Virus genome (UHGV): UHGV-0327679
Source of the DNA: a virus
DNA length: 35,439 bases
Reading direction: 5' to 3' (one strand)
The number at the start of each line of letters is the position of its first letter. Position 1 is the first letter of the stretch. Shown one piece after another: positions 22,647 through 34,285 of the stretch. The notes beneath the pieces were generated by a model. It was not told the origin of the DNA, did not search any database, and saw nothing but the letters and a program-made list of their open reading frames with translations. The position numbers and the translations under genes are program-made.

Positions 22647-22821
22647 CGTCTTCTTCCTCGTACATTGAGCTATTCGGATCGCTCATCAGTTCTGCACAGC
22701 AGTGCTCACACACGTGAACTTCCAGCACATGCAGCTTCTGACCGCAGTTAGCGCACGTTAAAGCCCGCTCGACGCTTTCTTTCTGGTATTGAATGGATTG
22801 GGATGGGCTAAGCATTAACAA
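22639..22821 (-). CDS. ninF: NinF-like zinc-finger protein
   Basis: [60 protein letters not shown] matches lambda NinF. Confidence 0.8.
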   Translation of the reverse strand: MLMLSPSQSIQYQKESVERALTCANCGQKLHVLEVHVCEHCCAELMSDPNSSMYEEEDDE

Positions 22822-23758
22822 CCTCCATACAAACTTTCACGAATGCCGTTGCTACTTCTGCATTGATTGCGTTTCCATATCCAATAATTCGCTGATCTTG
22901 ATTGCGCTTTGCCATTCTTCCCAGTGTGGACTTGCCTCGTCCCAAGCTTTTGGCAATGCCATTAACCATCGGGAATGAGCCGGGTCTAACTGGACGATAT
23001 TTTTCATCTCTACAGTAAAGCCAGTCTGCATCTCTCCAGAAGCCGTTAACCGGTAATGGGTACATAGCTTCACCGTCCCGGGAAGTTTCAAGCAGATTCT
23101 TGGGGTTCCGCTCTTGTCTTTTCCGCTGTAGCAATGCGTTGAACCTGTTGCATCGTTCGCTAAAGGAGTTTGCCATCCCGCTAGTCTCACGCATCCAGAT
23201 AGGTTCTGAATTCCCCTGCGCGTCTCTGGCTGAAAGTTGATATTTGTCGTTGGAGTAGGCCACCCAATACAATCGCTGCCTAATGTGCGGAGAACCGAAG
23301 CCCGCAGCGCAAATATCGGTACCTGCAGAGGTGTAGTTCGCACCTTCCAAGTCAGTTTGTACAAGGTCGAGCCAAGCGAGGCCGTCTGCGCTTGCAACCT
23401 GTTCGCCAATAACGATGCCAGGATTGCATTTTTCAATAAGCCAGAAGAATGCCGGCCATAAGTGCCGCTCGTCATCAACCCCTTTTCCTTTGCCTGCCGA
23501 GCTGAAAGGTTGGCATGGGCAACTTCCTGTCCAGATACTCTTGTTGTCTGGCCATCCTGCTTTTCTAAGTGCATAGCTCCAAACTCCGATTCCTGCAAAA
23601 AAGTGGTGCTGGGTAAATCCTCGCAAATCACCTGGTGTGACATCTTCAATACTCCTTTCATCTACATAACCGGGGGCAATTTCTCCAGCGTCAATTAAGT
23701 TACGCAGCCATTGCGCTGCATACGGATCTATTTCGTTGTAATACGCAGTCATCGTCAT
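22808..23758 (-). CDS. Orphan DNA (cytosine-5) methyltransferase
   Basis: Ordered C5-MTase motifs: [37 protein letters not shown]; no adjacent restriction endonuclease; start taken at the ATG overlapping the ninD stop. Confidence 0.75.
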
Positions 23759-28223: not shown

Positions 28224-28883
28224 ATGAAAATGAAATGGTATGAACTGGCTAGATCCAGAATGAAAGAGCTCGGCATAACTCAAGAGAGGTTAGCTGAAGA
28301 GCTTGGTATGACGCAGGGTGGAATTGGTCACTGGTTGCGCGGATCTCGTCATCCATCTCTTGACGAGATTGGTGTGGTGTTTAAATACCTTGGTATTGAT
28401 AACGTCTCATTCAACCACGACGGTACATTTTCACCTGTTGGCGAATACTCTCTGCCCCCGTTAAAAAAACAATATGAGTACCCTGTTTTTTCTCATGTTC
28501 AGGCCGGGATGTTCTCGCCTGAGCTTAGAACCTTTACCAAAGGTGATGCGGAGAGATGGGTCAGCACAACCAAAAAAGCCAGTGATTGTGCGTTCTGGCT
28601 TGAAGTTGAAGGTAATTCCATGACCGCGCCAACAGGATCCAAGCCAAGCTTTCCTGACGGGATGTTAATTCTCGTTGACCCTGAGCAGGCTGTTGAGCCA
28701 GGTGATTTCTGCATAGCCAGACTTGGTGGTGACGAGTTTACCTTCAAGAAACTGATCAGGGATAGCGGTCAGGTGTTCCTACAGCCACTAAACCCGCAAT
28801 ATCCAATGATTCCATGCAATGATAGCTGTTCCGTAGTAGGGAAAGTTATCGCCAGCCAGTGGCCTGAAGAGACATTTAGTTAA
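28224..28883 (+). CDS. cI: CI repressor, hybrid: novel N-terminal HTH domain fused to a lambda-type C-terminal LexA-like (S24) domain
   Basis: C-terminal [37 protein letters not shown]...[25 protein letters not shown] matches lambda CI; N-terminal [26 protein letters not shown] resembles the cro HTH; start 28224 or 28230. Confidence 0.8.
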
Positions 28884-29008: not shown

Positions 29009-29037
29009 TTGACTCAATAAAGTACAAATCGTACTAT
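29009..29037 (+). promoter_or_regulatory. PL promoter (-35 TTGACT, -10 TACTAT) with overlapping operator
   Basis: 17-nt spacer; palindrome AGTACAAATCGTACT at 29021-29035. Confidence 0.55.
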
Positions 29038-29077: not shown

Positions 29078-29106
29078 GCTCTTAAAAATTAAGCCCTGAA
29101 GAAGGG
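29078..29106 (+). promoter_or_regulatory. nutL (boxA GCTCTTAAA, boxB GCCCTGAAGAAGGGC)
   Basis: GGCTCTTAAAAATTAAGCCCTGAAGAAGGGC matches lambda nutL. Confidence 0.8.
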
Positions 29107-29290
29107 CGGCATTCAAAGCAGAAAGCTTTGGGGTGTGGTGAAGCTCAACGGCGAGCTAGGGAATAGTTTTGCGGTGAAGATTCTAGACAACTAACCGCAG
29201 GATGCGCGTAACCCAATCGGCAGCGCACCGATGGAAGCTGGTTCGACTCCAGCCACCACACCACCAAAGCTAACTGACAGGAGAATCCAG

Positions 29291-29617
29291 ATGGATGCAC
29301 AAACACGCCGCCGCGAACGTCGCGCAGAGAAACAGGCTCAATGGAAAGCAGCAAATCCCCTGTTGGTTGGGGTAAACGCAAAACCAGTTAACCGCCCTAT
29401 TCTCTCGCTGAATCGCAAACCGAAATCACGAGTAGAAAGCGCACTGAATCCGATAGACCTTACGGTGCTGGCTGAATACCACGAACAGATTGAAAGCAAC
29501 CTGCAACGTATTGAGCGCAAGAATCAGCGCACATGGTACAGCAAGCCACGCAGTGAAATGGGTGTGACTTGTGTTGGTCGCCAGAAAATGAAATTAGGCA
29601 GCAAACCACTTATTTGA
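29291..29617 (+). CDS. N: Antiterminator N
   Basis: MDAQTRRRERRAEKQAQWKAANPLLVGVNAKPVNRPILSLNRKPKSRVESALNPIDL, near-identical to lambda N. Confidence 0.9.
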   Translation: MDAQTRRRERRAEKQAQWKAANPLLVGVNAKPVNRPILSLNRKPKSRVESALNPIDLTVLAEYHEQIESNLQRIERKNQRTWYSKPRSEMGVTCVGRQKMKLGSKPLI

Positions 29618-29625
29618 GGTGATAT

Positions 29626-29814
29626 ATGGAACGTAAATTTGAAATTTGGTTGGATTCCGGCGCAAACATTCATTCTTGCAAAAAGACAGTTGTAACACTC
29701 GATGATCTTGGCTTATCCGAGAATGAGTGGAATGAAATGGATCAGGACGAAAAAGACGAAAACATGCGTGATGTAGCATTTGAAACGCTTGATTGGGGAT
29801 GGAAGGAAATTTAA
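29626..29814 (+). CDS. Hypothetical acidic 62-aa protein
   Basis: GAGGTGATAT Shine-Dalgarno before ATG; AT-rich; in the lambda ral/sieB position. Confidence 0.55.
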   Translation: MERKFEIWLDSGANIHSCKKTVVTLDDLGLSENEWNEMDQDEKDENMRDVAFETLDWGWKEI

Positions 29815-29818
29815 GTGA

Positions 29819-29845
29819 TGGCCGCATAGTCGGCCTTTATTTTTG
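29819..29845 (+). terminator. tL1-like terminator
   Basis: Stem GGCCG/CGGCC followed by TTTATTTTT. Confidence 0.5.
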
Positions 29846-29866
29846 GCATAAACAACAGAGGCTAAC

Positions 29867-30163
29867 ATGGAATTTAAAGGTACTGAAGGTAAGTGGGAAA
29901 TAATGATGGATGGCGATGAGATTAAAATCATCCAGGCAGACTCACTTGAAAATGGCGCAGGCTGGCGTTCGTATATTGCAATCTGTGAGGAAGTTCAATG
30001 CATTGAAGATGCCAATCTAATAGCGGCAGCACCTGACCTTCTCGAAGCACTTCAGTTATTACTTAAGCAAACCAAAAATAGAACAACGACAACATATCCA
30101 GAATGGTATGGAGCTGTTAATAAAGGTCTCGCAGCAATAAGAAAAGCTCTTGGGGATAAGTAA
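29867..30163 (+). CDS. Hypothetical 98-aa protein
   Basis: AGAGG Shine-Dalgarno; stop overlaps the next start (TAATGA). Confidence 0.55.
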   Translation: MEFKGTEGKWEIMMDGDEIKIIQADSLENGAGWRSYIAICEEVQCIEDANLIAAAPDLLEALQLLLKQTKNRTTTTYPEWYGAVNKGLAAIRKALGDK

Positions 30164-30351
30164 TGAAAGTAAAAATAACTGCTTCTAATACCAGTTTTGT
30201 TAGTGTTGGTGATATTACAGAAGTAATAACAAACCATGATGGAACACAAGTTATGTGGTCTGATTTTTGTAAAAGATATGAGCGAGTCACTTGGTGTAAA
30301 CTCGTATGGGGCGTCGAATACGAAGAATTACCTGAAATGCATGACGAATAA
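30163..30351 (+). CDS. Hypothetical 62-aa protein
   Basis: Translationally coupled to the upstream ORF. Confidence 0.5.
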   Translation: MKVKITASNTSFVSVGDITEVITNHDGTQVMWSDFCKRYERVTWCKLVWGVEYEELPEMHDE

Positions 30352-30446
30352 GCACTGTGTATTCATTCCAACGAGTGAATACACGGAGCAATGTCGCTCG
30401 TAACTAAACAGGAGCCGACTTGTTCTGATTATTGGAAATCTTCTTT

Positions 30447-30474
30447 GCCCTCCAGTGTGAGGGCCTTTTTATAT
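30447..30474 (+). terminator. Rho-independent terminator upstream of cIII
   Basis: Stem GCCCTC/GAGGGC with loop CAGTGT, then CTTTTTATAT. Confidence 0.65.
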
Positions 30475-30536
30475 GCATACCAATAACGCTTCACTCGAGG
30501 CGTTTTCGTTATGCAATCAAACAGAAGGAGCATCCT

Positions 30537-30707
30537 ATGCAACAGTTCGCTATTGCAGGGGCGGCATCGGTTCGCCCTTTCAACCCGATTTTATCGGTAC
30601 AGCATTCACGAAAAAATATTTTAACCGGAGCAGACTTTAAACAACCAAGAATGAAAAGTTTGCTCGAAAAGATTTGGGATATTTTGAAACAACAAGGCCG
30701 TCCATGA
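30537..30707 (+). CDS. cIII: CIII-like protease inhibitor
   Basis: 56 aa MQQFAIAGAASVRPF...LLEKIWDILKQQGRP, same pattern as lambda CIII (MQYAIAG...LLERITRKL...ILNQPG); GGAG Shine-Dalgarno. Confidence 0.6.
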   Translation: MQQFAIAGAASVRPFNPILSVQHSRKNILTGADFKQPRMKSLLEKIWDILKQQGRP

Positions 30708-30862
30708 GTTTTACAGATAACTGTTCAGACGAAGAATTCATTCGTCAGATGAAAGAATTAATCGGTAACGAAGGAGATATTCATGTCACTTGCAACCACA
30801 GTGAAGGAGAGCAAGTTACAGAGGCGCATGTACACGCAGAAAGCTCTCTGGTATCGCCATAA
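30704..30862 (+). CDS. Hypothetical 52-aa protein
   Basis: ATGA overlap with the cIII stop. Confidence 0.4.
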   Translation: MSFTDNCSDEEFIRQMKELIGNEGDIHVTCNHSEGEQVTEAHVHAESSLVSP

Positions 30863-30961
30863 TGGCGACCGCGAAGGAATGCGGGTATGCCTTAATTTGT
30901 CCCGAGTCGAAGTATTAAATCAGCGTTATTTCCTTGGGCCGTGTCCATTCTGAGGTGAATT

Positions 30962-32758: not shown

Positions 32759-33052
32759 ATGCCAGCGCCTCTGTATGGTGCGGATGACGCGCGCCGCTGT
32801 TCCGGCAATTCCGTATCGGAGGTGCTGGATAAATTCAGGAAAAACTACGACCGGATAATGTCGCTACCGCAGGAAACGAAAGAGGAAAAGGAATTTCGCC
32901 ATTGTATATGGCTTGCAGAGAAAGAAGAACGCGAGCGAATTTACCAGACATCAATCCGACCATTCCGCAAAGCCACATATACCCACTTCCCTGAAATTGA
33001 CCCGCGCCTGCGTAATTACCGCTCACGCTATGGCGCTATCAGTAATGACTGA
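32759..33052 (+). CDS. Hypothetical 97-aa protein
   Basis: Complete ORF with an upstream Shine-Dalgarno. Confidence 0.45.
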
Positions 33053-33227: not shown

Positions 33228-33661
33228 AACAAATGTCACTAATTGAGATGGATGGTTTTCTGAAAGGTAAATGCATCCCACGAGATTTAAAGGTTAACGA
33301 AACAAACGCTGAATATCTGGTGCGTAAATTTGCTGAAGCGGAGGCCAAGTGCGCGGCGCTGGCTGCTGAAGTTGAGGCTGTGAAATCAGCACATCAAGAT
33401 GCTGTAAACACCATCATGTATACCGCCAATCGAACGGGTGTTTTATACACAGAGAAGGCAATTCAAATGTCCTGCAAAACCCCGGCCACCGATGCTTTCC
33501 TGACTGAAGTCCGGGCTAAGGCGTTTGATGACCTTTGCGCGGCGTTCGTTAAGCACGCGTCGGTGTCCGGGCTGGACGATGGCGACTGCGTTACGGTGAA
33601 AGAGGCGACTGACGCCCTGCTGCATTGTGCGGAACAGCTTCACAAGGGAGTGCATTCATGA
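33224..33661 (+). CDS. Hypothetical protein (about 145 aa)
   Basis: Start probably the ATG at 33224; stop overlaps the lar start (ATGA). Confidence 0.45.
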
Positions 33662-33891
33662 GCAACCTACTACCATGTCCATTCTGTGGCGGTGCAGCGC
33701 ACGTTGCCAGCGAAGCAGATCACCCTGAATATGGCTCTGGCGGTCGATTCTATTTCGTTCGATGCGGTACGTGTCGCGCTCAATCTGGTAGCAAATATGC
33801 AGCGCCTGGAAATGACTGCGCGATTTTTTATTCAGAGGTTAGAGCAGAGTGGAATCAGCGAGCAAAGGAGGCAACCAGTGAGCAAGATTGA
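33658..33891 (+). CDS. lar: Lar-family restriction-alleviation protein
   Basis: [43 protein letters not shown], the Cys-rich Lar zinc-finger pattern. Confidence 0.7.
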   Translation: MSNLLPCPFCGGAAHVASEADHPEYGSGGRFYFVRCGTCRAQSGSKYAAPGNDCAIFYSEVRAEWNQRAKEATSEQD

Positions 33892-34285
33892 CTATCAGGC
33901 ACTGCGTGAAGCGGCAGAGAAAGCCGGTGAAGATAAGTGGCAGGCTAAAAAAATAAATGGTGATTTTTTCGTTATTCGTCACGGTAGTTATACAAGACAG
34001 CATGGCTACACATCGTATCAACCCATTGCGGAGATTGATTGTAAGCCAGTCCGGGATTTTGTTGCCAAGGCTAATCCGGCTACCGTGCTGGAATTACTGG
34101 ATGAACTGGAAGCAGCAAAAAAGCGCATTGCAGAACTGGAAGCGCGGGAAATATCGCTCCCGGAACGTAGCAGCATGCTTCATCGAACAGATTTTCACGA
34201 TGATTACCAAACGGTAATGGCATACAAAGTTTCTGAAGTCATCGATGCAATCCGCGCTACTGGCATTCGCATCAAAGGAGAGTGA
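33878..34285 (+). CDS. Ea22-like family protein, GTG start
   Basis: AAGGAGG 7 nt upstream of GTG 33878; VSKIDYQALREAAEKAGEDKWQA; predicted coiled-coil LELLDELEAAKKRIAELEA. Confidence 0.5.
   Translation: MSKIDYQALREAAEKAGEDKWQAKKINGDFFVIRHGSYTRQHGYTSYQPIAEIDCKPVRDFVAKANPATVLELLDELEAAKKRIAELEAREISLPERSSMLHRTDFHDDYQTVMAYKVSEVIDAIRATGIRIKGE

Follow-up and report, generated by a model that had tools for sequence, protein, structure and literature searches.

The 35,439-nucleotide (nt) virus genome UHGV-0327679, analysed at its full length and here called the window, carries three small open reading frames (ORFs) between a gene for the antitermination protein N and a cIII-like gene, and over this three-ORF stretch it is 100% identical to a prophage of Escherichia coli FDAARGOS_1256. 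ORF1 (29626-29814, 62 amino acids (aa), WP_021549877.1), ORF2 (29867-30163, 98 aa, WP_000394578.1) and ORF3 (30163-30351, 62 aa, WP_000865176.1) all lie on the plus strand, and their lengths as given in a preliminary description of the sequence are confirmed. The good Shine-Dalgarno sites claimed there were found upstream of all three, as GAGGTGA 6 nt before the ATG of ORF1 (which itself begins 8 nt past the stop codon of N), AGAGG upstream of ORF2 and GGGGA upstream of ORF3, and the partial coupling consists of an overlap of the ORF3 ATG with the ORF2 stop codon (TAATG). Compositionally, the proteins had been called mostly acidic, and all three are acidic by computed isoelectric point (pI; 4.23, 4.67 and 4.82 for ORF1, ORF2 and ORF3) and net charge (−10, −5 and −5); the genes are also AT-rich as described, with GC contents of 39%, 41% and 35%, respectively, against 47.7% for the whole window. 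The description erred in having the trio bracketed by terminators: no terminator precedes ORF1, the first hairpin lies between ORF1 and ORF2, and two more lie 3' of ORF3.

On the strength of their family matches, all three ORFs are genuine conserved genes and more than chance, since each matches a curated family. ORF1 is a member of DUF7167 (Pfam PF23768), which it matches at 34.7 bits against a gathering cut-off of 24.4 (E 2e-8), with residues 3-62 aligned to profile positions 1-58 of 60; it also matches phrog_8831 (E 2.5e-32), and RefSeq names it 'DUF7167 family protein'. ORF2 matches phrog_1273 (E 5e-32), and its membership in PF27050 (Phage_P22_Y8K6; a close relative carries the PGAP label 'XkdD/Y8K6 family phage-associated protein') is indirect but strong, judging from precomputed PF27050 annotations both on relatives at 97-100% identity (P0001-P0003) and on distant members recovered with an ORF2 profile. 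ORF3 is a member of phrog_10407, which it matches over its entire length (E 1.5e-45, residues 1-62 aligned with all 62 profile positions), and it has a second match in the C-terminal part of phrog_16117, which is the RB49p076 type. None of the three proteins is an orphan, as their families are catalogued and found far outside lambdoid phages; DUF7167, PF27050 and PHROG 10407 are each annotated as being of unknown function.

Searches aimed at function returned little. NCBIfam held no match for any of the three ORFs, the PADLOC anti-phage defence models gave no family at E ≤ 1, and a sequence search of solved structures, with single sequences and with family profiles of all three, found nothing below E 0.1. 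The earlier impression, formed by eye, that the proteins do not resemble Ral, SieB or Kil agrees with Pfam, where Ral (PF11058) gave no match to any of them at E ≤ 0.1, and Kil (PF06301) and SieB gave none at the same threshold in Pfam and PHROGs; the Ral model does detect Ral in sibling loci. A literature search for DUF7167, PF27050, XkdD/Y8K6, P22 orf78 and the protein accessions yielded nothing relevant.

Among close DNA relatives, differences in ORF2 and ORF3 are mostly synonymous, with ratios of nonsynonymous to synonymous polymorphism (pN/pS) of 0-0.27 and 0.06-0.39, respectively, a pattern that is one of purifying selection on both. It is highly improbable, then, that at least one of the ORFs is untranslated and that the region serves as a non-coding spacer or regulatory RNA. 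Such a reading could appeal to the shortness and AT-richness of the ORFs, to the disruption of ORF1 in two relatives and to a strong RNA hairpin after ORF3, but it is opposed by conservation at the protein level (about 36-50% identity) in unrelated Vibrio, Aeromonas, Synechococcus, T4-like and 9NA-like phages, by the predominance of synonymous differences, by the Shine-Dalgarno sites and by Rfam, which returned no family for the region and only a chance-level tmRNA fragment inside N (E 0.14).

Separately mobile genes in a recombination-prone slot

Across 5426 complete E. coli genomes, ORF1 was found in 31, ORF2 in 160 and ORF3 in 94, and the three occurred together in only 3. Gene content changes on either side of ORF2: the same ORF2-ORF3 cassette follows Ral, instead of ORF1, in a prophage of E. 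coli PCP07083 and an Nmad5 protein in one of E. coli GF4, and mEp043 retains ORF2 with an unrelated 52-aa gene in the place of ORF3. The whole trio also recurs at 57-63% identity in a further locus (L197), there in the order PF27050, ORF3 family, DUF7167, beside a pentapeptide-repeat gene and upstream of cIII. Thus, the three ORFs are separately mobile accessory genes of the pL operon, located in a recombination-prone slot between N and cIII. This N-to-cIII region was ranked second among phage accessory regions by Silas et al. (bioRxiv 10.1101/2023.04.06.535777), who label it 'Ral' (their Supplementary File 2) and report that known and new counter-defence genes and cell-death triggers cluster in it. 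The preliminary description had assigned the ORFs to the early-left slot in which lambdoid phages keep restriction-alleviation and host-takeover genes; as to position, this is upheld by N, by a nutL-like site and by Ral in sibling loci, but nothing here demonstrates the function.

From a transcriptional perspective, the layout is that of a lambda-like early-left operon. A LexA/cI-type repressor gene ends upstream at 28883, and between this cI-like gene and N lies a pL-like promoter (29009-29037, plus strand) consisting of TTGACT, a 17-nt spacer and TACTAT, which agrees with the consensus at 9 of 12 positions in a consensus scan and coincides in position with a putative PL annotated in mEp043. 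Further downstream, a nutL-like site was read from the sequence (29078-29107, plus strand), with a boxA-like GCTCTTA followed by a boxB hairpin, GCCCTGAAGAAGGGC (29093-29107), which was also retrieved as a stem-loop in the scan for terminators and stem-loops and which we take to be the counterpart of that in lambda nutL. N (29291-29617, plus strand, 108 aa, WP_021549876.1) has a lambda-type arginine-rich N terminus and is identified by Pfam N36 (E 2.9e-25), phrog_271 and RefSeq.

Between ORF1 and ORF2, the terminator scan located a tL1-like intrinsic terminator (29820-29845, plus strand), GGCCG-loop-CGGCC and then TTTATTTTTG, which forms the 5' boundary of the ORF2 cassette and whose hairpin (29820-29835, with the T-run following) has a folding energy of −11.9 kcal/mol. 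Hairpin, T-run and the Shine-Dalgarno site ahead of ORF2 are kept regardless of which gene precedes them, and in Ral-linked loci the hairpin has another stem sequence with the pairing retained. We infer that this hairpin actually terminates transcription. Because the first-position gene, be it Ral, Nmad5 or ORF1, lies between N and the terminator, it should be transcribed together with N before antitermination, and ORF2 and ORF3 would be N-dependent.

The parallel with Ral is one of place and size. Like Ral, ORF1 belongs to the pL operon, directly follows N and stands upstream of the same conserved hairpin and ORF2 cassette, and at 62 aa it is close to the roughly 64-66 aa of Ral, but the two share no sequence similarity (no PF11058 match). 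ORF1 is strongly acidic family-wide. Mechanistically, Ral acts by allosteric hyperactivation of a type I methyltransferase (Silas et al., bioRxiv 10.1101/2023.04.06.535777); this mechanism is described for Ral, to which ORF1 is likened by position and size only.

The 3' side of the cassette is marked by several structures. Right after the ORF3 stop codon, folding revealed a very stable hairpin that has no T-run (30352-30388, plus strand; −21.7 kcal/mol, z-score −6.9, 0 of 200 shuffles equally stable); the hairpin may stabilise the 3' end of the mRNA, serve as a processing site (RNase III) or belong to a module boundary. Many phage matches to a query of 29200-30500 stop just 3' of this hairpin, at about 30470, and more than 2,200 partial E. 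coli matches were obtained to 29600-30420. Two tandem terminator-like hairpins with T-rich tails (30447-30514, plus strand, from the terminator scan; 30447-30464 at −10.7 and 30485-30504 at −9.9 kcal/mol, z-score −2.7 each) then close the ORF2-ORF3 cassette before the cIII-like gene (30537-30707, plus strand, 56 aa, phrog_550 'CIII' at 5.7e-22), which is the downstream boundary of the variable slot.

Beyond this boundary, the cIII-like gene is followed by two small ORFs, a Rad52-type annealase, SSB, an exonuclease, Abc2, a Lar-family protein and an Ead/Ea22-like protein. The two small ORFs overlap (30674-30862 and 30783-30953, plus strand) and match PHROGs labelled 'recombinase' (phrog_2123, phrog_1723); RefSeq annotates neither. 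The anti-RecBCD Abc2 gene (32759-33052, plus strand) and the Lar-family restriction-alleviation gene (33658-33891, plus strand), both annotated by RefSeq in the same operon, mean that the prophage has other counter-defence genes even without Ral. In the prophage's nin region, RefSeq also annotates a gene for a DNA cytosine methyltransferase (about 22808-23752, minus strand), and this is possibly another means of self-protection against restriction. Pentapeptide-repeat proteins recur in the N-to-cIII slot of related loci beside Ral or PF27050 genes (L009 1817-2461, which is ST104 orf19; L015 5108-5647; L197 1665-2219). Pentapeptide-repeat proteins, Qnr and MfpA among them, mimic DNA, so those of this slot may be further anti-restriction candidates.

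Fold, modules and partners of ORF2

PF27050 is characterized by three motifs, FKGTxGxW, NAxLIAAAPxLLEAL and AIxKALG, within a length of about 100 aa, and ORF2 carries them as FKGTEGKW, DANLIAAAPDLLEAL and AIRKALG; across 141 diverse members the motif columns are at least 90% conserved. A search of 1.84 billion cluster representatives with an ORF2 profile recovered 7252 proteins at E ≤ 1e-3, nearly all of about 100 aa and each standing for a cluster at 50% identity, and sampling of one genome per species placed the family in Proteobacteria, Bacteroidota, Planctomycetota, Bacillota, Actinomycetota and other phyla. ORF2 thus bears the family motif FKGTxGxW...NAxLIAAAPxLLEAL...AIxKALGE, and its link to P22 Orf78/Y8K6 and to XkdD of the Bacillus subtilis element PBSX runs via the Pfam and PGAP names. 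P22-like ST104 has an ORF2 homologue, orf18 (annotated as 'similar to P22 orf78'), in the interval from ral to gene 17, near sieB, a location that corresponds to that of ORF2 in the ral-to-17/cIII interval. Distant members likewise occur in early operons, between repressor and integrase genes or beside recombination genes. As no PF27050 member has a known function, membership is silent on mechanism.

Structurally, an AlphaFold2 model built from the 141-sequence alignment (mean predicted local distance difference test, pLDDT, 90.8) predicts a five-strand beta-meander (residues 10-43) followed by helices at 46-53, 55-70 and 78-95; it replaced a first model from a shallow alignment, in which the N-terminal half was poor (pLDDT 73.6). 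Foldseek found no solved structure in the PDB that resembles the whole predicted fold (E ≥ 0.29), and the matches of the model in BFVD were all uncharacterised phage proteins. ORF2 gave no match to a nucleic-acid-binding fold, and PF27050 shows no conserved polar or charged patch. The near-invariant residues of the family (F3, T6, G8, W10, A49, L51, I52, A54, A55, P56, L58, L59, A61, L62, I91, K93 and A94) are almost all hydrophobic or small, including those of the LIAAAPxLLxAL helix, and ORF2 would on these grounds be a scaffold rather than an enzyme.

Two parts of ORF2, the N-terminal sheet (residues 1-44) and a distal segment (64-88), assort independently among close relatives. One homologue (P0024) is 100% identical to ORF2 in the N domain and 12% identical in the variable segment, and another (P0071) shows the reverse, at 25% and 100%. 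The swap breakpoints coincide with conserved stretches, namely the central helix and the C-terminal AIxKALGE segment, and the combination found in ORF2, of one sheet subtype with one variable hairpin, is one of many in PF27050.

The neighbourhoods of PF27050 genes raise the question of whether ORF2, by itself or jointly with ORF3, assists recombination or replication as an accessory factor, with ORF1 as unrelated cargo. In Oceanobacillus, a PF27050 gene stands beside genes for an SbcC-like ATPase, a RecT-like protein and a metallo-beta-lactamase nuclease, in Microvirga one lies near a YqaJ exonuclease gene, enterobacterial phage members lie upstream of ERF or Rad52-type annealing proteins, and the window itself has the Rad52-like annealase, SSB and an exonuclease no more than about 1 kb downstream. 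We nonetheless consider such a role quite unlikely, as terminators, cIII and other small ORFs separate ORF3 from the recombination genes, the type of recombination module (ERF, Rad52, RecT) varies independently of PF27050, and the family lacks both the conserved polar or charged patch and the nucleic-acid-binding fold match mentioned above.

Another alternative, which we regard as somewhat unlikely, is that the three proteins modulate the phage's own development (lysis-lysogeny, timing, or cell-division and protease control) in the manner of cIII, Kil and the exo-xis/Ea22 small proteins. Their operon includes a cIII-like gene and, in sibling prophages, Kil as well, and the presence of PF27050 in early operons of temperate elements of many phyla fits general phage biology better than a strain-specific arms race. 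In addition, ORF2 resembles Ead/Ea22-like proteins (PF13935) by eye, with a short N-terminal W-containing strand region and a helix like ...ANPATVLELLDELE, and among 693 window ORFs the best non-self match of the PF27050 profile was the Ead/Ea22-like protein of the same operon (33878-34285, plus strand, PF13935 E 1.2e-18), with an hmmsearch E of 0.037 and an hhalign E of 9e-4. The kinship was rejected, however, because the link is not significant: the hhalign probability was 22.6%, falling to 0.8% with a small Ea22 alignment, and ORF2 has no PF13935 match. Patchy presence (31-160 of the 5426 genomes), cassette replacement and ORF1 pseudogenes are moreover typical of dispensable accessory genes, and the independent swapping of surface modules in ORF2 would be unexpected for a regulator of a conserved phage or host target.

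ORF3 belongs to a small family, with 21 homologues in an indexed search, and these include proteins of E. coli and Salmonella prophages. The ORF3 sequence also forms the C-terminal domain of the 119-aa RB49p076 (L005 2312-2671) of a T4-like Krischvirus, behind an N-terminal region of about 60 aa. Krischvirus genomes have a second ORF3-family paralogue just upstream of the RB49p076 type (L195 and L196, 1966-2223). The N-terminal part of RB49p076 lacks the PF27050 motif, and a Rosetta-stone fusion of ORF2 and ORF3 was accordingly rejected.

The association of the two genes is nevertheless frequent. In 56 of 77 IMG/VR loci an ORF3-family gene directly abuts a PF27050 gene; the partners comprise at least eight very different PF27050 subtypes, with ORF3 identity down to about 50%, and one lineage (L188-L191) has the reverse order. 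This adjacency, with its range of subtypes and in both orders, points to a functional link between ORF2 and ORF3, possibly in the form of a complex. An obligatory pair can be dismissed, as mEp043 and L010 have a different 52-aa gene after ORF2, and ORF3 is also found alone elsewhere.

Candidate role in counter-defence

A counter-defence role of the three genes, such as the preliminary description had put forward, is plausible but unproven; it is plausible because the slot is swap-prone and holds the anti-restriction gene ral in related phages. For ORF1, the features that bear on such a role are charge and place. Acidity is conserved across 27 distinct homologues, the most divergent at about 42% identity (net charge −7 to −15, pI 4.05-4.55), in a family whose members occur in enterobacterial lambdoid and P22-like phages, 130-kb Vibrio phages, a Synechococcus phage and an Aeromonas phage, where the homologue is a lone opposite-strand gene within the tail module. 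Small acidic DNA mimics that serve as decoys for DNA-binding defences include T7 Ocr, ArdA, T4 Arn and phi29 p56, the last of only about 56 aa. ORF1 is likewise a small, very acidic, early phage protein in an anti-restriction hot spot, with conserved acidity, and at −10 in 62 aa it has the high conserved negative charge of the Ocr/ArdA type; as it has no sequence relation to any of them, the likeness is a working analogy and not membership. By this analogy, ORF1 would fit a decoy or nucleic-acid mimic directed against a DNA-binding defence, because its conserved acidity, its Ral-equivalent position and its immediate-early placement all accord with such a function.

We posit, with a probability of roughly 40%, that the three genes encode non-enzymatic binding proteins aimed at host defences or other host functions, with ORF1 made immediately and ORF2 and ORF3 after antitermination. 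Under this scheme, ORF1 would be made with N on the immediate-early transcript, before antitermination, and could block a DNA-binding defence such as restriction, as a decoy or nucleic-acid mimic, immediately upon entry of the phage DNA into the cell; ORF2 and ORF3 would be N-dependent delayed-early genes. All three products would be small soluble binders whose targets are host proteins or proteins of competing elements, and ORF2 would be a conserved scaffold with exchangeable recognition surfaces that probably acts with ORF3. A bolder version, which we think improbable, would make PF27050 a pan-bacterial set of phage inhibitor scaffolds, in which a core of Trp-anchored beta-meander and LIAAAPxLLEAL helix displays two exchangeable recognition modules. 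In enterobacterial lambdoid phages, this scaffold would form a unit with ORF3, often alongside the acidic DUF7167 protein as a non-homologous immediate-early replacement of Ral, and the whole would constitute a modular counter-defence set.

Some relatives of these genes have been through a published screen, in which 200 accessory genes were assayed in ECOR strains with T phages, P1 and lambda vir (Silas et al., bioRxiv 10.1101/2023.04.06.535777). Two screen members, orf110 (35% identical to ORF2) and orf123 (hhalign probability 98.5%), belong to the ORF2 family; the set included no DUF7167 member and no ORF3-family member. Also from the 'Ral' region, orf149 is identical to the mEp043 gene that stands in the place of ORF3, and orf168 looks, by eye, closely homologous to the 56-aa ORF at 30783-30953. 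Lastly, orf184 of mEp213, from the same region, triggers the P4-encoded gop-beta-cII (Silas et al.). Of orf110, orf123, orf149, orf168 and orf184, a phenotype is available for orf184 only, and that protein, although acidic (107 aa), is unrelated by eye to the three ORFs.

The orf184 result bears on a further alternative, namely that the genes serve conflicts between phages or other mobile elements, through superinfection exclusion, anti-exclusion (compare P22 gene 17 versus SieB), or as decoys or triggers for the abortive-infection systems of prophages and satellites. The position of ST104 orf18 between ral and gene 17 is in keeping with this, as are the triggering of P4 gop-beta-cII by a gene of the same accessory region and the occurrence of ORF1 and ORF3 homologues as lone opposite-strand insertions in tail modules of other phages. 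We judge it unlikely, though, because the window scan found no promoter-like site belonging to the three genes themselves, and genes behind pL are repressed in a lysogen and so cannot protect it; moreover, none of the three resembles SieB, gene 17 or any PADLOC model, and orf110 and orf123 are not reported as cell-death triggers.

Several observations weigh against the counter-defence reading itself. No functional evidence is at hand for any of the three families (no annotated function, no PADLOC or NCBIfam match), and the Pfam scan gave no family for ORF2 or ORF3, in a copy of Pfam that lacked the PF27050 model. In the Silas et al. preprint, orf110 and orf123 are absent from the main text that names screen hits. 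The idea of ORF1 as a DNA mimic draws on charge and position only, and ORF1 is dispensable, given that its gene is frameshifted in mEp043 (gp47, L001 3403-3558, annotated from an internal TTG) and interrupted by a nonsense codon in E. coli Nord122 (L018 327-515). Virulent or unrelated phages also contain ORF1 homologues on their own, and in 9NA-like Salmonella phages an ORF3 homologue stands by itself on the opposite strand. An ORF3 neighbour is absent from most PF27050 genes, and the adjacency of ORF2 and ORF3 may in part be hitch-hiking on the conserved 3' end of PF27050 genes: in E. coli PEC422 (L020 567-701) ORF3 follows a 44-aa ORF whose only likeness to PF27050 is its end, ...ANALGDK, an ORF2-like C terminus, which suggests recombination inside the 3' end of PF27050 genes.

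Taken as it stands, the locus adds one more ordinary case to an accessory-gene hot spot described before: its three families are already catalogued, RefSeq has annotated it and the hot spot is itself in the literature. New here are the exact equivalence of the slot held by Ral, Nmad5 and DUF7167 upstream of a conserved terminator, the conserved acidity of DUF7167, the independent module swapping of PF27050 and the linkage of PF27050 with ORF3. Experimentally, the module swaps and the pairing with ORF3 offer handles, in the form of a variable surface and a partner for co-expression, and both may explain the silence of single-gene screens. The ORF2 family is among the larger phage families without a function, with more than 7,000 clusters at 50% identity and a predicted fold unlike solved structures. 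If ORF1 truly substitutes for Ral, proteins that counter restriction or other defences would gain a new type, one whose relatives extend to phages of Vibrio, Aeromonas and cyanobacteria.

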